Source of the DNA: a virus
Strand: one strand, 5' to 3'
Length of the DNA: 64,000 nt
Virus record (IMG/VR): IMGVR_UViG_3300016669_000002
Position numbers and translations under genes: made by a program
In this document: one piece after another, positions 1-38,387 of the stretch
Numbering within the stretch: position 1 is the stretch's first letter
Layout: the number at the start of each line of letters is the position of its first letter
Notes under the pieces: model-generated
The model's database searches: none
Seen by the model: only the letters and a program-made list of their open reading frames with translations
Told to the model about the DNA's origin: nothing

Positions 1-16
1 CCAAATGCAATGTTTA

Positions 17-25
17 TGTTATAAT
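17..25 (+). promoter_or_regulatory. Extended -10 promoter (TGtTATAAT) driving a candidate small RNA
   Basis: TG-n-TATAAT at 17-25; no convincing -35. Confidence 0.6.
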
Positions 26-30
26 AAATG

Positions 31-141
31 TGACAAAAGACATAGTGCTTTCTGTCCTTGCCTAACCATCATCGAACTAACCCTCTGGAGGTTTACACGT
101 ACTAGTTCGTGTTTACTGAGTCCATGGTTAGTTCCTTTTTT
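31..141 (+). ncRNA. Candidate ~110-nt structured small RNA convergent with the SIR2 gene
   Basis: Downstream of the extended -10; hairpin 32-39/48-56; stem GAACTAACC 74-82 / GGTTAGTTC 126-134 followed by a T-run; no plus-strand ORF. Confidence 0.5.
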
Positions 142-1705
142 ATTTATGTTTAATTAAATCGTATATACGAATTAGTCTTCTCATATCAGCGTTTGTTTCG
201 AATTTATCTTGACTTAAAGTTTGTCTCAAAAAATCGCCAAGTTCTTCAATATTTTCTTTAGAGTAGTCAACAAGAGCAAGTTTGTATAACTTATCATTTG
301 TGTAGGACGTTGCTTTACTGACGGTCATGGACTCAGAAAGTGATTTCTTTTCTTTCTTCATTTTATCAGACAACATTTTTCGTACTGAATCAAACCTAGT
401 GAGATTGTTCCTTACAATCTTTGGTAACTGGGACCATTCGATATCTGCAGCTTTAATGTATTTCCTATACGGAAGATATCCGGCGGTTTTTTGTAGCAAT
501 AGTGGAATTGTTTCAGTGACTAAGAGTTCTGGCGCAAATTTAGCATCATCGAAAACAATGTCTTGAAATATTTCACTTTCATTAACAATTTGGTAACCAT
601 TTTTTGCGCGTTCTATCATCCCAAATCCATATACGAATTCGATATTTTCTAATTCATCTTTACTTAAATCTTCGTCAGGCAATGAGAGCATCATTCTATT
701 TTTCGGATCATTAGTTAATACTAGATTGTACATATCTTCTTTGACATATCTTAGCATTTTGATAGGGTATTTCGACCGGTTTTGTGCAAGTTGATCATAT
801 AGAATAGAATAATTATTAATGGAAATTTTCCTCATCGTTAAAGATCTACCTTTATCAAAAGTGATGGTATAGGTAGACTCTTTAAAGTTCGTTTCATTTG
901 AATCCCAAACTACATAAAAGAGCCTATCGGCTATAATAGATAGCTGATCATCCGTTAAACAAACCTGAATGTCTTCTAAAGTGTTTCGAATATCTTCATC
1001 ACCAATCGAATACCCAATAAAAAAAATTGGATGCTCTAAAAAAATGGTTAACAATTTAGCTGAGATATATTTATGTTTTTCTTCAATTTTTCTATAATCT
1101 GCAGAATTTATCAATATAGAATCTGCATATTTGGAGCAACCGTGAATTTTATATATCTCACCCAAATCAAATTTAGAATGGAATAATAATTCCTCTTGTG
1201 ATGTGTAAGTGTGATACCCAAAAATATTTTCAAGTAATGTGTCATAATTTGTTGTGATAATACCTGAAATAGAATTTGTTGATATATCTCTTAATGAATT
1301 AATTTCATTCTCTGTCCCAGGTATGTACTCTTCAAAGCTGTTTATGTACTCTGCTATCTCAATTTTTATAGGTGGTATGTTTTTTTGTCTAATTAAAGAT
1401 TCATATTCAATTCTATTTTTTTCAAATTTCTCATCAGTGTACCAAATTTTATCCAAATCGTCTGAGATAATATCACATAGAGCAGTCATATATTGATTAT
1501 ATTGATTTTTTTCATCATATTTTTTGGCTGCTTCATTTTTAGCCCTAATAAAGCCAAAATTATTCTCGTAAGTAATTGATGCAATGTACTCAAGCAATTC
1601 TTCCCAATTGGGTAGCCCCAAATATCTTCTCGAAAAACCAGAACCAATAAAAAGAAAGGGTAAGGAATCTGCTTTCTTAAGTAATGGCTCTAAGAAATCA
1701 TTCAT
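140..1705 (-). CDS. SIR2-family (SIR2_2-like) putative NADase, stand-alone, likely anti-phage effector
   Basis: Motifs LFIGSGFS, IITTNYD, YKIHGC, FFIGYSIGD typical of defence-associated sirtuins; AGGAGG RBS. Confidence 0.88.
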   Translation of the reverse strand: MNDFLEPLLKKADSLPFLFIGSGFSRRYLGLPNWEELLEYIASITYENNFGFIRAKNEAAKKYDEKNQYNQYMTALCDIISDDLDKIWYTDEKFEKNRIEYESLIRQKNIPPIKIEIAEYINSFEEYIPGTENEINSLRDISTNSISGIITTNYDTLLENIFGYHTYTSQEELLFHSKFDLGEIYKIHGCSKYADSILINSADYRKIEEKHKYISAKLLTIFLEHPIFFIGYSIGDEDIRNTLEDIQVCLTDDQLSIIADRLFYVVWDSNETNFKESTYTITFDKGRSLTMRKISINNYSILYDQLAQNRSKYPIKMLRYVKEDMYNLVLTNDPKNRMMLSLPDEDLSKDELENIEFVYGFGMIERAKNGYQIVNESEIFQDIVFDDAKFAPELLVTETIPLLLQKTAGYLPYRKYIKAADIEWSQLPKIVRNNLTRFDSVRKMLSDKMKKEKKSLSESMTVSKATSYTNDKLYKLALVDYSKENIEELGDFLRQTLSQDKFETNADMRRLIRIYDLIKHK

Positions 1706-1750
1706 AATATTTCTCCTCCTAAATATGATATATTATTTTTGTAATATGAA

Positions 1751-1796
1751 AGTCCTATTTCAGCTCCCCAGCTATGAAGTAGGGCTATTTTATTTT
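1751..1796 (+). terminator. Hairpin plus T-run between the SIR2 and Zn-ribbon/PH genes (terminates plus-strand transcription)
   Basis: agtcctatttca 1751-1762 pairs with tgaagtagggct 1775-1786, then attttatttt. Confidence 0.6.
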
Positions 1797-2289
1797 ATAA
1801 ATCAACTCGATAATCAATTTTACTTCTTGTTTGATAGTTTTGAGTTGCAGCACGAATCTGGTCTTTGATTTCATATGGATTCTGTAACTGCTTAAATATT
1901 ACTTCTCTACCATCATTTAAATTTAAAACAATGTGGCCAATTTTTAAAACTTTCTCTTTTAGTCCTTGTTTAACATCAATTTTATTAATGTCACCAAGTT
2001 CGATTTCTTCACGCTTAGTGGTTAAATTCTTTCGTTCTAGCAATATACGTTGGTTAGTAAGCGTATAGTTAACTCGTGGTAATGATAGGTCAATTTTTCC
2101 GGCAAAATTTTGCTTTTTATCTTCCATACCAAAAAGATGAGTCGAGAAAGTAGCAATTGTTTCTTCTTTATTTAAGCTCTCGTGTTTATTACTTGCATCA
2201 GTGGTAATACCACCATCAACTTTAAAACCGCAATTAGAACAGAACTTCATACCTTCAATATTATTCCCACATTCTGGACAGAACTTCAT
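1795..2289 (-). CDS. Zinc-ribbon plus bacterial PH-domain protein
   Basis: N-terminal CPECG...CSNCG; C-terminal YTLTNQRILL...I..I.VKQG...G.I.L PH-like pattern. Confidence 0.75.
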   Translation of the reverse strand: MKFCPECGNNIEGMKFCSNCGFKVDGGITTDASNKHESLNKEETIATFSTHLFGMEDKKQNFAGKIDLSLPRVNYTLTNQRILLERKNLTTKREEIELGDINKIDVKQGLKEKVLKIGHIVLNLNDGREVIFKQLQNPYEIKDQIRAATQNYQTRSKIDYRVDL

Positions 2290-2715: not shown

Positions 2716-3150
2716 TTAAATATTTTGTTCATCAATTAATTTTTGAATATAGTCGCTTACTTCTTTTTCTTGTTCATCCGTAAGGTTTTCATCTTTATGT
2801 GCAGCAATCAATATATCGTCTTTCTTATTAATTGCTGTTTGTTCCTCAAGTTGCTTTTTGGCAAACGTATACACTTTTTTCTGTCTTAAATTGTCTAGCT
2901 GGTTATAGATAGGTAAAATAGAACGATCATATTTTCCGTGCACTAAATCATCAACAGTTACCTCGAAGAAATCAGCTAATATTCTCACAGAAGATAGCTT
3001 TGGTTCTTCTTTATTATTTTCCCATTTAGAAATTTTACCTTTATTGAAGTTTAATGTATTAGGGTATTTAGAATTTAACTCATTAGACAATTCTTCAAGT
3101 GTGTAGTTTCTAGAATTTCTTAGCGAGCGTATATTATCTCCAATCATCAT
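2716..3150 (-). CDS. CI-like XRE-family repressor
   Basis: N-terminal HTH (ISKWENNKEEP...LADFFEVTVDDL); divergent from cro; C-terminal IAAH motif. Confidence 0.9.
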   Translation of the reverse strand: MMIGDNIRSLRNSRNYTLEELSNELNSKYPNTLNFNKGKISKWENNKEEPKLSSVRILADFFEVTVDDLVHGKYDRSILPIYNQLDNLRQKKVYTFAKKQLEEQTAINKKDDILIAAHKDENLTDEQEKEVSDYIQKLIDEQNI

Positions 3151-34673: not shown

Positions 34674-34866
34674 GAGTTCACACTTGAGTTCACACTTTTT
34701 TGTTTTTTATTGTCATTCTTTTACAACTGTTTTGTCCAAAACCCTATTAAATCAAGGTTTTCAATTTTCTTTAACGTTCTTTTTGTACTTATTTATGCCG
34801 AATGCAGGAATATGAATTGTTGTCATATCAACGTTTGTAAAGGGTGAGTTCACATGGTGTTCACAT
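34674..34866. other. attP: arm-type repeats flanking a core resembling a tRNA 3' end
   Basis: GAGTTCACAC x2 (34674, 34686); GAGTTCACAT/GTGTTCACAT (34846, 34857); core 34796-34811 reads ATTCCTGCATTCGGCA on the minus strand. Confidence 0.75.
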
Positions 34867-35950
34867 GTTGCTCTGTGTTTTCTAAAATCTCGATTACCTT
34901 TGTATCTTGTTGCTGCTTAAATTCATTGAGTATGTGGGCATAAGTCTTAAGCGTTTCAATGGTGCTAGCGTGGCCTAATCGCTTGCTGATGTAATTAATA
35001 TCAATACCATTATAGATCAGGTAGCTACAATGTGTATGACGTAGTCCATGGATACCACAAAATTCTATCGATAAACTCTCACATAGTTTCTTTAAGTATT
35101 TTCTAATTGCAGTATCAGTAATTACTGGGTTTTCAAATTTATCCAAGAATAAAAACTTAGGTGACTGTGATTGAAACTTTAGTTTATATTCAAATATATG
35201 TTTCTTAAAAGTATCAGTAATTTTAATTTTACGAATACTTGTCTTTGTCTTACCTGCAGTAAATGTTTTACTTGCAGTATAATCATAACCACGATTTACC
35301 TCTAATACATTTCCGTGGATATCATCCCATGATAATCCATATATCTCGCCAAGACGTAAACCAGTATTGATAGCAATATATAGCGCTGTACTTCTAGGCG
35401 TTAATTCATCTTGAAACGCTTTTGTTAATAGTTCGCCGTCATGGATATTCCAAGCCTTAATTCTTGATTGCTGATCATTATCGTAGCTAATCACAACATT
35501 GAAAGTAGGGTCAACCTGTATCAGATTATCAGCTAAAGCCATTTGAATAGCTTGTTTTAATCTGAAATGTGTTTTTTCAACGGTATTTCTAGCTCTATTT
35601 TTGCCTCTTATATTAATAAACGTCTGATACCGTTGCCTGGTCAATAGCTTTAAGGGTAAATTACCAAAATACTCATGTACTAATTTTATAAGGTGTTTAT
35701 ACTCTTTGATAACTTTATCAGTTATCATAGTTTCTTTATATGTATAAAACCATTTCTCAAAGTAATTAGCAAAGGGCATATCAGCATTAATATCGTAAGT
35801 AATTTCTTCTTGTTTAGTGCCATAAATTTGAGCCTCTTTTTTTGATTTGAAGCCTTTTTTCATCTTTTGATGTCTATTTCCTTTGTTATCGTAGACGTTA
35901 TATCTAACGTACCATTTATTGGTTTTAGGATCTTTATTAACGCTTGCCAT
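34850..35950 (-). CDS. int: Tyrosine integrase
   Basis: TGLRLGEIYGL, HGLRHTHCS, RLGHAS...TY catalytic residues; arm-binding N-terminus. Confidence 0.96.
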   Translation of the reverse strand: MASVNKDPKTNKWYVRYNVYDNKGNRHQKMKKGFKSKKEAQIYGTKQEEITYDINADMPFANYFEKWFYTYKETMITDKVIKEYKHLIKLVHEYFGNLPLKLLTRQRYQTFINIRGKNRARNTVEKTHFRLKQAIQMALADNLIQVDPTFNVVISYDNDQQSRIKAWNIHDGELLTKAFQDELTPRSTALYIAINTGLRLGEIYGLSWDDIHGNVLEVNRGYDYTASKTFTAGKTKTSIRKIKITDTFKKHIFEYKLKFQSQSPKFLFLDKFENPVITDTAIRKYLKKLCESLSIEFCGIHGLRHTHCSYLIYNGIDINYISKRLGHASTIETLKTYAHILNEFKQQQDTKVIEILENTEQHVNTM

Positions 35951-35973
35951 TATTTATCACTCCTACTATTTCA

Positions 35974-36083
35974 GTGTGAACTCTGGTATAATAGGTATGC
36001 AAAATGCACGCACCTAGTGCATTTTGTCAAACTTCAGATTACCTCACTCTTCGACCGTCCAAAGTGTAGAGTGGGGTGTTTTT
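35974..36083 (+). promoter_or_regulatory. Integrase leader: arm-type site, antisense extended -10 and two hairpins
   Basis: GTGTGAACTC 35974-35983; TGgTATAAT 35984-35992; 10-bp hairpin 36000-36026; hairpin plus T-run 36041-36083. Confidence 0.6.
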
Positions 36084-36128
36084 AATTTAAAATTATTTCC
36101 AAATGCAATGTTTATGTTATAATAAATG

Positions 36129-36239
36129 TGACAAAAGACATAGTGCTTTCTGTCCTTGCCTAACCATCATCGAACTAACCCTCTGGAGGTTTACACGTAC
36201 TAGTTCGTGTTTACTGAGTCCATGGTTAGTTCCTTTTTT
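36129..36239 (+). ncRNA. Copy 2 of the candidate small RNA
   Basis: Same as 31-141. Confidence 0.5.
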
Positions 36240-37803
36240 ATTTATGTTTAATTAAATCGTATATACGAATTAGTCTTCTCATATCAGCGTTTGTTTCGAA
36301 TTTATCTTGACTTAAAGTTTGTCTCAAAAAATCGCCAAGTTCTTCAATATTTTCTTTAGAGTAGTCAACAAGAGCAAGTTTGTATAACTTATCATTTGTG
36401 TAGGACGTTGCTTTACTGACGGTCATGGACTCAGAAAGTGATTTCTTTTCTTTCTTCATTTTATCAGACAACATTTTTCGTACTGAATCAAACCTAGTGA
36501 GATTGTTCCTTACAATCTTTGGTAACTGGGACCATTCGATATCTGCAGCTTTAATGTATTTCCTATACGGAAGATATCCGGCGGTTTTTTGTAGCAATAG
36601 TGGAATTGTTTCAGTGACTAAGAGTTCTGGCGCAAATTTAGCATCATCGAAAACAATGTCTTGAAATATTTCACTTTCATTAACAATTTGGTAACCATTT
36701 TTTGCGCGTTCTATCATCCCAAATCCATATACGAATTCGATATTTTCTAATTCATCTTTACTTAAATCTTCGTCAGGCAATGAGAGCATCATTCTATTTT
36801 TCGGATCATTAGTTAATACTAGATTGTACATATCTTCTTTGACATATCTTAGCATTTTGATAGGGTATTTCGACCGGTTTTGTGCAAGTTGATCATATAG
36901 AATAGAATAATTATTAATGGAAATTTTCCTCATCGTTAAAGATCTACCTTTATCAAAAGTGATGGTATAGGTAGACTCTTTAAAGTTCGTTTCATTTGAA
37001 TCCCAAACTACATAAAAGAGCCTATCGGCTATAATAGATAGCTGATCATCCGTTAAACAAACCTGAATGTCTTCTAAAGTGTTTCGAATATCTTCATCAC
37101 CAATCGAATACCCAATAAAAAAAATTGGATGCTCTAAAAAAATGGTTAACAATTTAGCTGAGATATATTTATGTTTTTCTTCAATTTTTCTATAATCTGC
37201 AGAATTTATCAATATAGAATCTGCATATTTGGAGCAACCGTGAATTTTATATATCTCACCCAAATCAAATTTAGAATGGAATAATAATTCCTCTTGTGAT
37301 GTGTAAGTGTGATACCCAAAAATATTTTCAAGTAATGTGTCATAATTTGTTGTGATAATACCTGAAATAGAATTTGTTGATATATCTCTTAATGAATTAA
37401 TTTCATTCTCTGTCCCAGGTATGTACTCTTCAAAGCTGTTTATGTACTCTGCTATCTCAATTTTTATAGGTGGTATGTTTTTTTGTCTAATTAAAGATTC
37501 ATATTCAATTCTATTTTTTTCAAATTTCTCATCAGTGTACCAAATTTTATCCAAATCGTCTGAGATAATATCACATAGAGCAGTCATATATTGATTATAT
37601 TGATTTTTTTCATCATATTTTTTGGCTGCTTCATTTTTAGCCCTAATAAAGCCAAAATTATTCTCGTAAGTAATTGATGCAATGTACTCAAGCAATTCTT
37701 CCCAATTGGGTAGCCCCAAATATCTTCTCGAAAAACCAGAACCAATAAAAAGAAAGGGTAAGGAATCTGCTTTCTTAAGTAATGGCTCTAAGAAATCATT
37801 CAT
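36238..37803 (-). CDS. SIR2-family protein (copy 2)
   Basis: Same translation as 140-1705. Confidence 0.88.
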   Translation of the reverse strand: MNDFLEPLLKKADSLPFLFIGSGFSRRYLGLPNWEELLEYIASITYENNFGFIRAKNEAAKKYDEKNQYNQYMTALCDIISDDLDKIWYTDEKFEKNRIEYESLIRQKNIPPIKIEIAEYINSFEEYIPGTENEINSLRDISTNSISGIITTNYDTLLENIFGYHTYTSQEELLFHSKFDLGEIYKIHGCSKYADSILINSADYRKIEEKHKYISAKLLTIFLEHPIFFIGYSIGDEDIRNTLEDIQVCLTDDQLSIIADRLFYVVWDSNETNFKESTYTITFDKGRSLTMRKISINNYSILYDQLAQNRSKYPIKMLRYVKEDMYNLVLTNDPKNRMMLSLPDEDLSKDELENIEFVYGFGMIERAKNGYQIVNESEIFQDIVFDDAKFAPELLVTETIPLLLQKTAGYLPYRKYIKAADIEWSQLPKIVRNNLTRFDSVRKMLSDKMKKEKKSLSESMTVSKATSYTNDKLYKLALVDYSKENIEELGDFLRQTLSQDKFETNADMRRLIRIYDLIKHK

Positions 37804-37892
37804 AATATTTCTCCTCCTAAATATGATATATTATTTTTGTAATATGAAAGTCCTATTTCAGCTCCCCAGCTATGAAGTAGGGCTATTTTATT

Positions 37893-38387
37893 TTATAAAT
37901 CAACTCGATAATCAATTTTACTTCTTGTTTGATAGTTTTGAGTTGCAGCACGAATCTGGTCTTTGATTTCATATGGATTCTGTAACTGCTTAAATATTAC
38001 TTCTCTACCATCATTTAAATTTAAAACAATGTGGCCAATTTTTAAAACTTTCTCTTTTAGTCCTTGTTTAACATCAATTTTATTAATGTCACCAAGTTCG
38101 ATTTCTTCACGCTTAGTGGTTAAATTCTTTCGTTCTAGCAATATACGTTGGTTAGTAAGCGTATAGTTAACTCGTGGTAATGATAGGTCAATTTTTCCGG
38201 CAAAATTTTGCTTTTTATCTTCCATACCAAAAAGATGAGTCGAGAAAGTAGCAATTGTTTCTTCTTTATTTAAGCTCTCGTGTTTATTACTTGCATCAGT
38301 GGTAATACCACCATCAACTTTAAAACCGCAATTAGAACAGAACTTCATACCTTCAATATTATTCCCACATTCTGGACAGAACTTCAT
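37893..38387 (-). CDS. Zn-ribbon/PH protein (copy 2)
   Basis: Same translation as 1795-2289. Confidence 0.75.
   Translation of the reverse strand: MKFCPECGNNIEGMKFCSNCGFKVDGGITTDASNKHESLNKEETIATFSTHLFGMEDKKQNFAGKIDLSLPRVNYTLTNQRILLERKNLTTKREEIELGDINKIDVKQGLKEKVLKIGHIVLNLNDGREVIFKQLQNPYEIKDQIRAATQNYQTRSKIDYRVDL

Follow-up and report, generated by a model that had tools for sequence, protein, structure and literature searches.

The first 1,796 nucleotides of the IMG/VR virus record IMGVR_UViG_3300016669_000002, analysed here as a window of 64,000 nt, carry a gene for a 521-amino-acid SIR2-domain protein (140-1705, minus strand) and, convergent with it, what the sequence indicates to be a gene dedicated to a small non-coding RNA, about 110 nt long (17-145, plus strand), whose 61-nt hairpin core doubles as its terminator. 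Judged by comparison of homologous loci, this small RNA gene is an integral second component of the SIR2 cassette that is catalogued as PADLOC PDC-S25 and PHROG 2695. We favour, with a probability of about 0.45, the reading that the RNA is a 3'-overlapping cis-antisense, antitoxin-like brake on SIR2.

Homologous loci were gathered by identity look-ups (44-80% identity) and from IMG/VR and GTDB, and were treated as a close set of distinct SIR2 loci at 39-80% identity and a further set of 33 distinct phage loci at 27-61% identity. A promoter, a long bulged hairpin and a U-run abutting the SIR2 stop on the opposite strand were found in 14 of the 15 close loci, which stem from Enterococcus, Lacticaseibacillus, Loigolactobacillus, Lactococcus, another Bacilli genome and metagenomes, and the A-run right after the SIR2 stop is kept in all 14 element-bearing homologous loci. 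In all, about 45 related loci show a convergent small folded RNA after SIR2. The flanks of the pair vary, holding integrases of different families (L003, L042, L053, L054), IS21 (L046), non-phage chromosomal genes (L008) or unrelated small genes (L004, L039, L057), and in L004, L008 and L046 the pair stands without a nearby integrase. Homology between loci ends at the RNA promoter, and leader identity, at about 0.6, equals the background for AT-rich DNA. Since the flanks differ and homology stops at this promoter, the inherited unit consists of SIR2 and the RNA gene. The initial annotation of the window, made from the letters alone, had proposed that the RNA travels with the SIR2 cassette and not with the integrase gene int; this was borne out, as the RNA lies beside SIR2 homologues down to 39% identity in unrelated contexts and, by covariance model, nowhere else. 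An analogous opposite-strand long hairpin with a U-run on the SIR2 stop occurs even in Streptococcus phage Javan227 (L275, 3063-3170; 26.5% identity, just before the integrase), with hairpin energies of -27.0 versus -18.2 kcal/mol and a TGaTATAAC box about 105 nt upstream.

The specificity of this association was evident from searches that started with the RNA. The covariance model, R1, scored 40.7-70.6 bits within the family and no more than 18.6 bits in unrelated loci that total about 1.9 Mb; it matched all eight IMG/VR loci at >=44% identity, each at the stop codon and on the opposite strand, while its single match in 151 Bacilli genomes adjoins the SIR2 gene of genome G143. RNA-first pattern scans, which returned about 210 random loci, left two after the covariance model filter (L165 and L260), both abutting a SIR2 homologue. 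No Rfam family matched the element in the window, nor in the 14 homologous loci at E<=0.05, and the element had no match among phage records in DNA searches, whether near or distant. The supposition that no SIR2-ncRNA (non-coding RNA) pair has been described agrees with the result from Rfam and with a full-text literature search, which found none; PDC-S25 itself was named only in passing, in one unrelated paper (two versions), and no experimental paper on it was found. A review of lactococcal abortive infection (Abi) systems treats AbiH as sirtuin-like and AbiF and AbiQ as RNA-controlled, drawing no link between them (PMC13064643).

All 15 variants of the RNA fold independently into one architecture, in which a basal stem (7-10 bp) leads to a three-base CYC loop opposite one bulged U, then to a middle stem (3-5 bp), an asymmetric loop and an apical stem, with a hairpin length of 50-67 nt. 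The middle stem covaries (UGGA/UCCA, UGAA/UUCA, UAGA/UCUA), and the apical stems have unrelated sequences among the variants. Compensatory changes were detected by RNAalifold in 10 of the 12 basal and middle pairs, and in a model-based alignment 89.4% of cells were paired versus 78.2% in shuffles, a value reached by none of 500 of them. Both sides change in nine of the 12 modelled pairs (0 of 500 shuffles), and pairing falls to 28-53% when the partners are slid against each other, so that both the co-occurrence and the covariation by which the RNA had been proposed to be checked are present. A natural case of a swapped RNA is seen in L039 (3164-3228), where the coding sequence (CDS) has 73% nucleotide identity to that of the window and the hairpin architecture is equal, with its sequence largely replaced (54-57% identity). 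Among distant homologues the hairpin sequence drifts freely.

The strand that carries this structure could be told from its stability and from its G·U pairs. The strand opposite SIR2 is the more stable in 15 of 15 variants (mean -22.8 vs -14.2 kcal/mol), with 54 G·U pairs on it against two on the sense strand; because of this greater stability and these G·U pairs, the RNA structure is assigned to the opposite strand. As base composition could mimic a strand bias, controls were run on the 33-locus set, expressed as how much more stable the opposite strand is than the sense strand. In the 90 nt past the stop, the opposite strand is favoured by 8.15 kcal/mol (28 of 33 loci), compared with 0.26 kcal/mol inside the CDS (321 windows), -2.68 upstream of the gene and 2.23 at 200 nt further downstream; the bias after the stop differs from the coding-region controls with p=6e-11 (Mann-Whitney). 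Such comparative data indicate that the hairpin is under RNA-level selection on the strand opposite SIR2.

Turning to the element in the window itself, it has to be considered that these 64,000 nt run about 1.8 times round a circular genome of 36,098 bp: an exact second occurrence of bases 1-40 begins at 36099, base composition shows the same period, and all window features from 1 to 27,902 repeat at +36,098. The small RNA gene begins with an extended -10 promoter, TGtTATAAT, at 17-25 on the plus strand (second copy at 36115-36123). Its -35 box, TTTCCA, is visible in the unbroken second genome copy at 36096-36101, 16 nt upstream of the -10, and a promoter scan scored the promoter 10/12 with the TG. 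The predicted 5' leader (32-73, with a start at about 31-33) contains a local hairpin at 32-56 and is followed by the conserved core, a 61-nt bulged hairpin at 74-134 that is identified by its minimum free energy (z -4.65), by covariation and by an R1 score of 63.2 bits. In the basal 9-bp stem of this core GAACTAACC (74-82) is paired with GGTTAGTTC (126-134); further inwards come a CUC internal loop facing a one-U bulge, the middle stem UGGA/UCCA and the apical stem ACACG/CGUGU (95-99/108-112), the last belonging to an inner hairpin at 95-112. The terminator U-run (TTTTTTATTT, 136-145, the T-run itself being 136-141) overlaps the SIR2 stop codon (140-142, minus strand) and the last Lys codon. 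The second copy of the RNA gene, at 36124-36243 on the plus strand, is an exact repeat of position 1 onward, with an R1 match at 36168-36238. All features that the initial annotation had listed, namely the TGtTATAAT box, the hairpins at 32-56 and 95-112, the 9-bp stem and the T-run at the SIR2 stop, are therefore present in the sequence. Its description of the region of about 110 nt as free of open reading frames (ORFs) also holds in practice, the listed 50-amino-acid frame at 5-157 beginning upstream of the -10 box and having no ribosome-binding site. A small peptide encoded within the RNA was rejected by inspection, the frames having only 9-14 codons without a ribosome-binding site and the RNA of L040 having no ATG.

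On the plus strand a GC-containing hairpin followed by a U-run forms a regular intrinsic terminator. The element goes beyond a plain terminator in having a promoter about 48 nt upstream of the hairpin (window coordinates) and in a hairpin about three times the usual length with conserved bulges; the RNA from 26 to 150 folds at -29.5 kcal/mol (z -2.65), and the terminal 61-nt hairpin by itself reaches the z of -4.65 given above. The initial annotation had seen the excess of structure mainly in mutually exclusive pairings, and here its view stood only in part. The alternative pairings 73-79/103-109 and 62-69/124-131 do exist in the window, but they are private to this phage: leader and 3' arm can pair over 8 nt and arm and loop over 6-7 nt here, as against 0-6 nt in 12 other variants, with 6 nt only in L040 (5'-arm pairing), and what is conserved is one long bulged hairpin. 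A riboswitch-like switch is unsupported, because the alternative pairings are found in this phage alone and two variants are nearly leaderless. In trans, the RNA showed no pairing signal with the ribosome-binding region of SIR2, the energies being -18.3 for cognate, -16.8 for non-cognate and -17.0±3.8 kcal/mol for shuffled RNAs. An integron attC-like recombination hairpin, to which the AAC...GTT arms and the bulges might point, was ruled out by the reliance on G·U pairs of one strand, by the conserved U-run and promoter, and by the lack of an integron integrase. Apart from one 9-nt repeat inside an ORF, no tandem repeats were found at 35800-38100.

The promoter is likewise a constant part of the element. 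Of the 14 close loci, 13 have, 6-54 nt upstream of the hairpin, a -10 box with at least five of six matches, and the fourteenth (L015) has a weaker TTGACT-17-TAAACT box that was found by eye. The TGn-extended form of the -10 occurs in eight of the 14, compared with 1.3 expected from shuffles (maximum 6 in 1,000). Leader length ranges from about 0 to 47 nt among homologues, with almost none (about 0-1 nt) left in L040 and L046. Of the 33 further loci, 18 have a strong opposite-strand promoter 75-155 nt from the stop, compared with one of 33 for the sense strand of the same region and 14 of 222 CDS control windows. A canonical sense terminator for SIR2 was found within +75 of the stop in only two of the 33 loci and at +75..+320 in 18, and among the close loci seven of 14 have a sense terminator just beyond the RNA promoter. 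Because these sense terminators lie past the RNA promoter, the 3' untranslated region (UTR) of the SIR2 mRNA should carry the complement of the whole small RNA. Upstream of SIR2, no conserved element except the ribosome-binding site was found in the homologous loci.

The partner of the RNA is a soluble enzyme of 521 amino acids and not a small hydrophobic peptide. It is a full-length member of PADLOC PDC-S25 (PDLC04968, E 3.1e-136, residues 2-521 on profile positions 9-515 of 517), a candidate defence system in PADLOC, and belongs to PHROG 2695 (phrog_2695, E 8.1e-128), with a match to Pfam SIR2_2 (E 1.8e-18). An AlphaFold model (pLDDT 86) showed two parts. The N-terminal one has the fold of a defence-type SIR2 NADase, with Foldseek matches to DSR2, ThsA and KomC/HAM-SIR2 (E 4e-9 to 1e-6); ThsA profiles match this SIR2 part only (residues 139-254). 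The motifs TNYD (152-155) and KIHG (186-189), including N153 and H188, are invariant in 51 homologues, and H188 aligns with the catalytic H146 of KomC. With intact catalytic motifs and a SIR2 fold, the protein is therefore predicted to be competent in catalysis and expected to act as an NADase. Residues from about 364 to 521 form a C-terminal all-alpha domain that is conserved and confidently folded (pLDDT >90). No convincing relatives of it were found, the best Z being 3.6, all Foldseek matches having E>=1 and those in the Atlas being other SIR2 proteins only; structure searches revealed no recognisable RNA-binding fold or motif in this domain, and searches with Pfam and PADLOC profiles no RNase domain in the protein.

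Defence sirtuins destroy NAD+ and must stay silent until infection. Known ways of controlling them comprise protein sensors (DSR2), signalling nucleotides (Thoeris), HerA partners and Argonaute guides. For the SIR2 protein of the window, we rank the cis-antisense brake first because the layout is that of 3'-overlapping type I toxin-antitoxin pairs. According to this model, the SIR2 mRNA, for which no terminator precedes the RNA gene, would read through that gene in its 3' UTR, where an abundant small RNA would pair with it as a perfect cis-antisense. SIR2 expression would thereby be kept low in healthy cells, probably via cleavage of the duplex or destabilisation of the 3' end; when infection halts host transcription or alters RNA turnover, the brake would be lost, SIR2 would rise and NAD+ would be depleted. 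Directly supported parts of this picture are gene layout, conservation and covariation, the strand that bears the structure, the enrichment of promoters and the intactness of the catalytic motifs; we infer the transcription itself, the overlap of both transcripts, the sign of the regulation and its link to infection. The broader proposal of the initial annotation, an RNA-controlled SIR2 module, is supported as a general idea by the comparative evidence, but its analogy to type III systems such as ToxIN and AbiF fails on layout, the RNA being convergent, downstream and single-copy and the partner being no RNase.

Several observations weigh against a cis-antisense brake. The window has no clean sense terminator after the RNA gene, the nearest candidate being at +216, and SIR2 transcripts may therefore continue into int. 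A search of RNA libraries yielded one 151-nt contig at a depth of about 4, in which the promoter is also covered and which may thus be DNA or SIR2 read-through, while no read of this prophage occurred in three raw-read runs, a result that does not speak for the absence of the RNA. The type I toxins described so far are short membrane peptides, unlike an enzyme of 521 amino acids. Two homologues are exceptions: that of Chryseomicrobium aureum (L002, 64% identity) has no recognisable copy of the RNA on a contig that ends 125 nt past the stop, and in Bacillus phage phBC6A51 (31.6% identity) its place is taken by an ordinary terminator on the sense strand. Moreover, the CYC loop with its one-U bulge and the covarying middle stem are conserved, although pure cis-antisense needs no such fine architecture, and in the closest clade hairpin identity (0.82-0.92) exceeds that of the coding DNA (0.72-0.77). 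The conserved fine architecture, together with a hairpin conservation above that of the CDS, hints at recognition by a protein. In the Chryseomicrobium contig (L002 / G001 contig 22), another opposite-strand terminator (CGTCAACAAATTGACG+T5) was seen 45-65 nt past the SIR2 stop.

Such recognition is the core of the best-placed alternative, a type III-like control or cofactor role in which the folded RNA binds the SIR2 protein, for example at the all-alpha C-terminal domain, and either inhibits the NADase until it is lost or displaced in infection or serves as a licensing sensor. Internal loops and bulges kept with covariation over 39-80% protein identity, the hairpin of the closest clade being more conserved than the CDS, and a C-terminal domain that is confidently folded and conserved and has no assigned function are all consistent with it, and RNA antitoxins that block enzymes have precedent in ToxIN and AbiF (PMC13064643). 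We nevertheless regard it as unlikely, as no RNA-binding fold or motif was found in the SIR2 protein, the convergent, downstream, single-copy and repeat-free layout is unlike that of every described type III system, and the hairpin drifts in distant homologues, being swapped outright in L039 despite 73% CDS identity. Its most specific form, in which the PDC-S25 sirtuin and the hairpin RNA form a ribonucleoprotein with the RNA as direct antitoxin or infection sensor of the NADase, must be viewed as doubtful at about one chance in five or so.

A second alternative denies the RNA any function: hairpin and U-run would be a protective terminator against outside antisense transcription into a toxic gene, and any effect of the promoter would come from transcriptional interference or from a collision with read-through of SIR2, its product being inert. 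The conserved core is indeed the terminator, the leader is dispensable (about 0-1 nt in L040 and L046), a convergent ORF upstream could use the terminator in L039 and L057, and the RNA gave no trans-pairing signal with the SIR2 ribosome-binding site. A simple insulator, however, could do without the strong and often extended -10 promoter that every close locus has 6-54 nt upstream of the hairpin, and without a multi-bulge architecture of 50-67 nt held by compensatory change, and the tight placement at the stop codon is conserved as well, which makes this explanation quite improbable. Finally, that the RNA has another target, in integrase and lysogeny control or in host mRNAs in trans, and adjoins SIR2 by linkage only is very improbable: the element does sit in the SIR2-to-int spacer here and in many prophages, and it is separated from int by another sRNA-like unit (35983-36085), but the pair persists without an integrase (L004, L008, and L046 in its IS21 context), the covariance model never found the RNA apart from SIR2, and homology stops at the RNA promoter.

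The window derives from a temperate phage of a low-GC Firmicute, the terminase region being its sole part that resembles known phages (streptococcal and others, about 65% DNA identity). A lysogeny module on the minus strand runs, in this order, from a cI-like HTH repressor (2716-3150) through an ImmA/M78 peptidase (2305-2706) and, directly upstream of SIR2, a zinc-ribbon and bacterial-PH (bPH_2) protein (1795-2289) to SIR2 itself and, past a spacer, the integrase gene. In agreement with the initial annotation, int is the next minus-strand gene after the RNA, since in the wrapped genome the ORF list places a tyrosine integrase at 34850-35950 on the minus strand; it lies outside the SIR2-RNA module and gave weak matches to XerC/XerD-type recombinases, all far under the curated cut-offs. 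The spacer between SIR2 and the integrase has 288 nt, and the small RNA gene sits there on the opposite strand.

This spacer holds a further unit resembling a small RNA gene (35983-36085, plus strand), between the SIR2-linked RNA and the integrase start and divergent from int, with a TGgTATAAT box, a perfect hairpin of 11 bp (GCAAAATGCAC...GTGCATTTTGT) and a terminator hairpin plus U-run (fold z -4.2). It has a sub-threshold Rfam match to the S. pyogenes sRNA Spy779816 (32 bits vs a gathering score of 67, E 0.007) and may be a regulator of int. In five other loci (L040, L042, L046, L051, L054), which belong to Enterococcus, Lacticaseibacillus and metagenomic prophages, SOS boxes of the Gram-positive Cheo/LexA type (GAAC-N4-GTTC, e.g., GAACGTACGTTC) lie about 100-130 nt past the sRNA promoter towards int, beside a bidirectional-looking hairpin and before an integrase or remnant flank; the window itself has none. 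On the other side of SIR2, between the stop of the bPH gene and the SIR2 start, a long hairpin at 1745-1795 is followed by ATTTTATTTT on the plus strand and pairs far better on that strand, which has the G·U pairs (-32.5 vs -19.0 kcal/mol for a region of 135 nt). It could be a terminator of antisense transcription through SIR2, and it is not conserved in the other SIR2 loci. A small PH-domain protein recurs just upstream of SIR2, as zinc ribbon and bPH_2 in the window (1795-2289, minus strand), as bPH_1/bPH_3 in L040 (2057-2419) and, by a weak match, as PH_gly_zipper in L004 (1116-1778), and elsewhere the upstream neighbour is SHOCT, DUF4352 or BLIP-like; PH-domain gene and SIR2 may thus form a loose association.

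If SIR2 is indeed controlled by this RNA, a conserved antisense or structured RNA would add a further control principle for sirtuin effectors, the 'single-gene' PDC-S25 / PHROG 2695 would become a two-component system, and the logic of cis-antisense 'antitoxins' would extend from small membrane peptides to a large enzyme. A SIR2 ORF cloned without its 3' flank could then be toxic or inactive. Were the control to work through the ribonucleoprotein, no RNA-gated sirtuin would precede this one, and the pair would represent a type of toxin-antitoxin outside the definitions of types I and III. Finders of defence systems that consider proteins only miss an RNA partner. Members of the SIR2 family are often found in prophages of the tractable hosts Enterococcus, lactobacilli and Lactococcus.

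Among known systems, the 3'-overlapping type I pairs of Firmicutes prophages, such as txpA/RatA and bsrG/SR4 of B. subtilis, and RNA I/RNA II of E. faecalis pAD1 par come closest in layout. As in those, and to judge from the layout alone, a strongly promoted small RNA gene with a stable terminator hairpin would be convergent with a toxic gene and overlap it at the 3' ends of the transcripts, and the pairs are likewise carried on prophages or mobile elements of low-GC Gram-positives. Unlike their hydrophobic peptides of <60 amino acids, the partner here is a 521-amino-acid enzyme of the SIR2 NADase type, and the 5' direct repeats of par have no counterpart in the SIR2-linked RNA. With type III and Abi systems (ToxIN, AbiQ, AbiF-ncRNA; PMC13064643) it would share, by analogy, a defence effector silenced by an adjacent dedicated ncRNA and a likely abortive-infection logic. 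Their RNA, however, lies upstream in the same orientation and usually consists of tandem repeats processed by an endoribonuclease toxin, whereas here a single-copy, convergent, downstream RNA free of repeats stands beside a sirtuin effector.

Defence sirtuins (DSR2, ThsA, KomC/HAM-SIR2, SIR2-HerA, SIR2-APAZ/pAgo) share with the protein of the window the N-terminal SIR2 fold, the catalytic Asn and His and the expected depletion of NAD+, but a dedicated ncRNA gene has been described for none of them, by our literature search. Our SIR2 protein has no SLOG, HerA, APAZ/Argonaute or TIR partner and is half the size of DSR1/DSR2; unlike in Thoeris ThsA, the SLOG fusion and the adjacent TIR protein (ThsB) are absent, the neighbours being the zinc-ribbon/bPH protein and the integrase. 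The SIR2 protein is a full-length member of PDC-S25, which is catalogued as a single-gene candidate, and of PHROG 2695, a family catalogued without a function; a partner RNA or a demonstrated function is recorded for neither. A last parallel is offered by the OOP RNA of phage lambda, which is antisense to the 3' end of cII and belongs to the lysis-lysogeny circuit. Like OOP, the SIR2-linked RNA would be a short phage RNA with its own promoter, convergent with a neighbouring gene and complementary to the 3' end of its mRNA; OOP is limited to one phage group, whereas the SIR2-linked RNA follows a mobile defence-type gene across unrelated elements.

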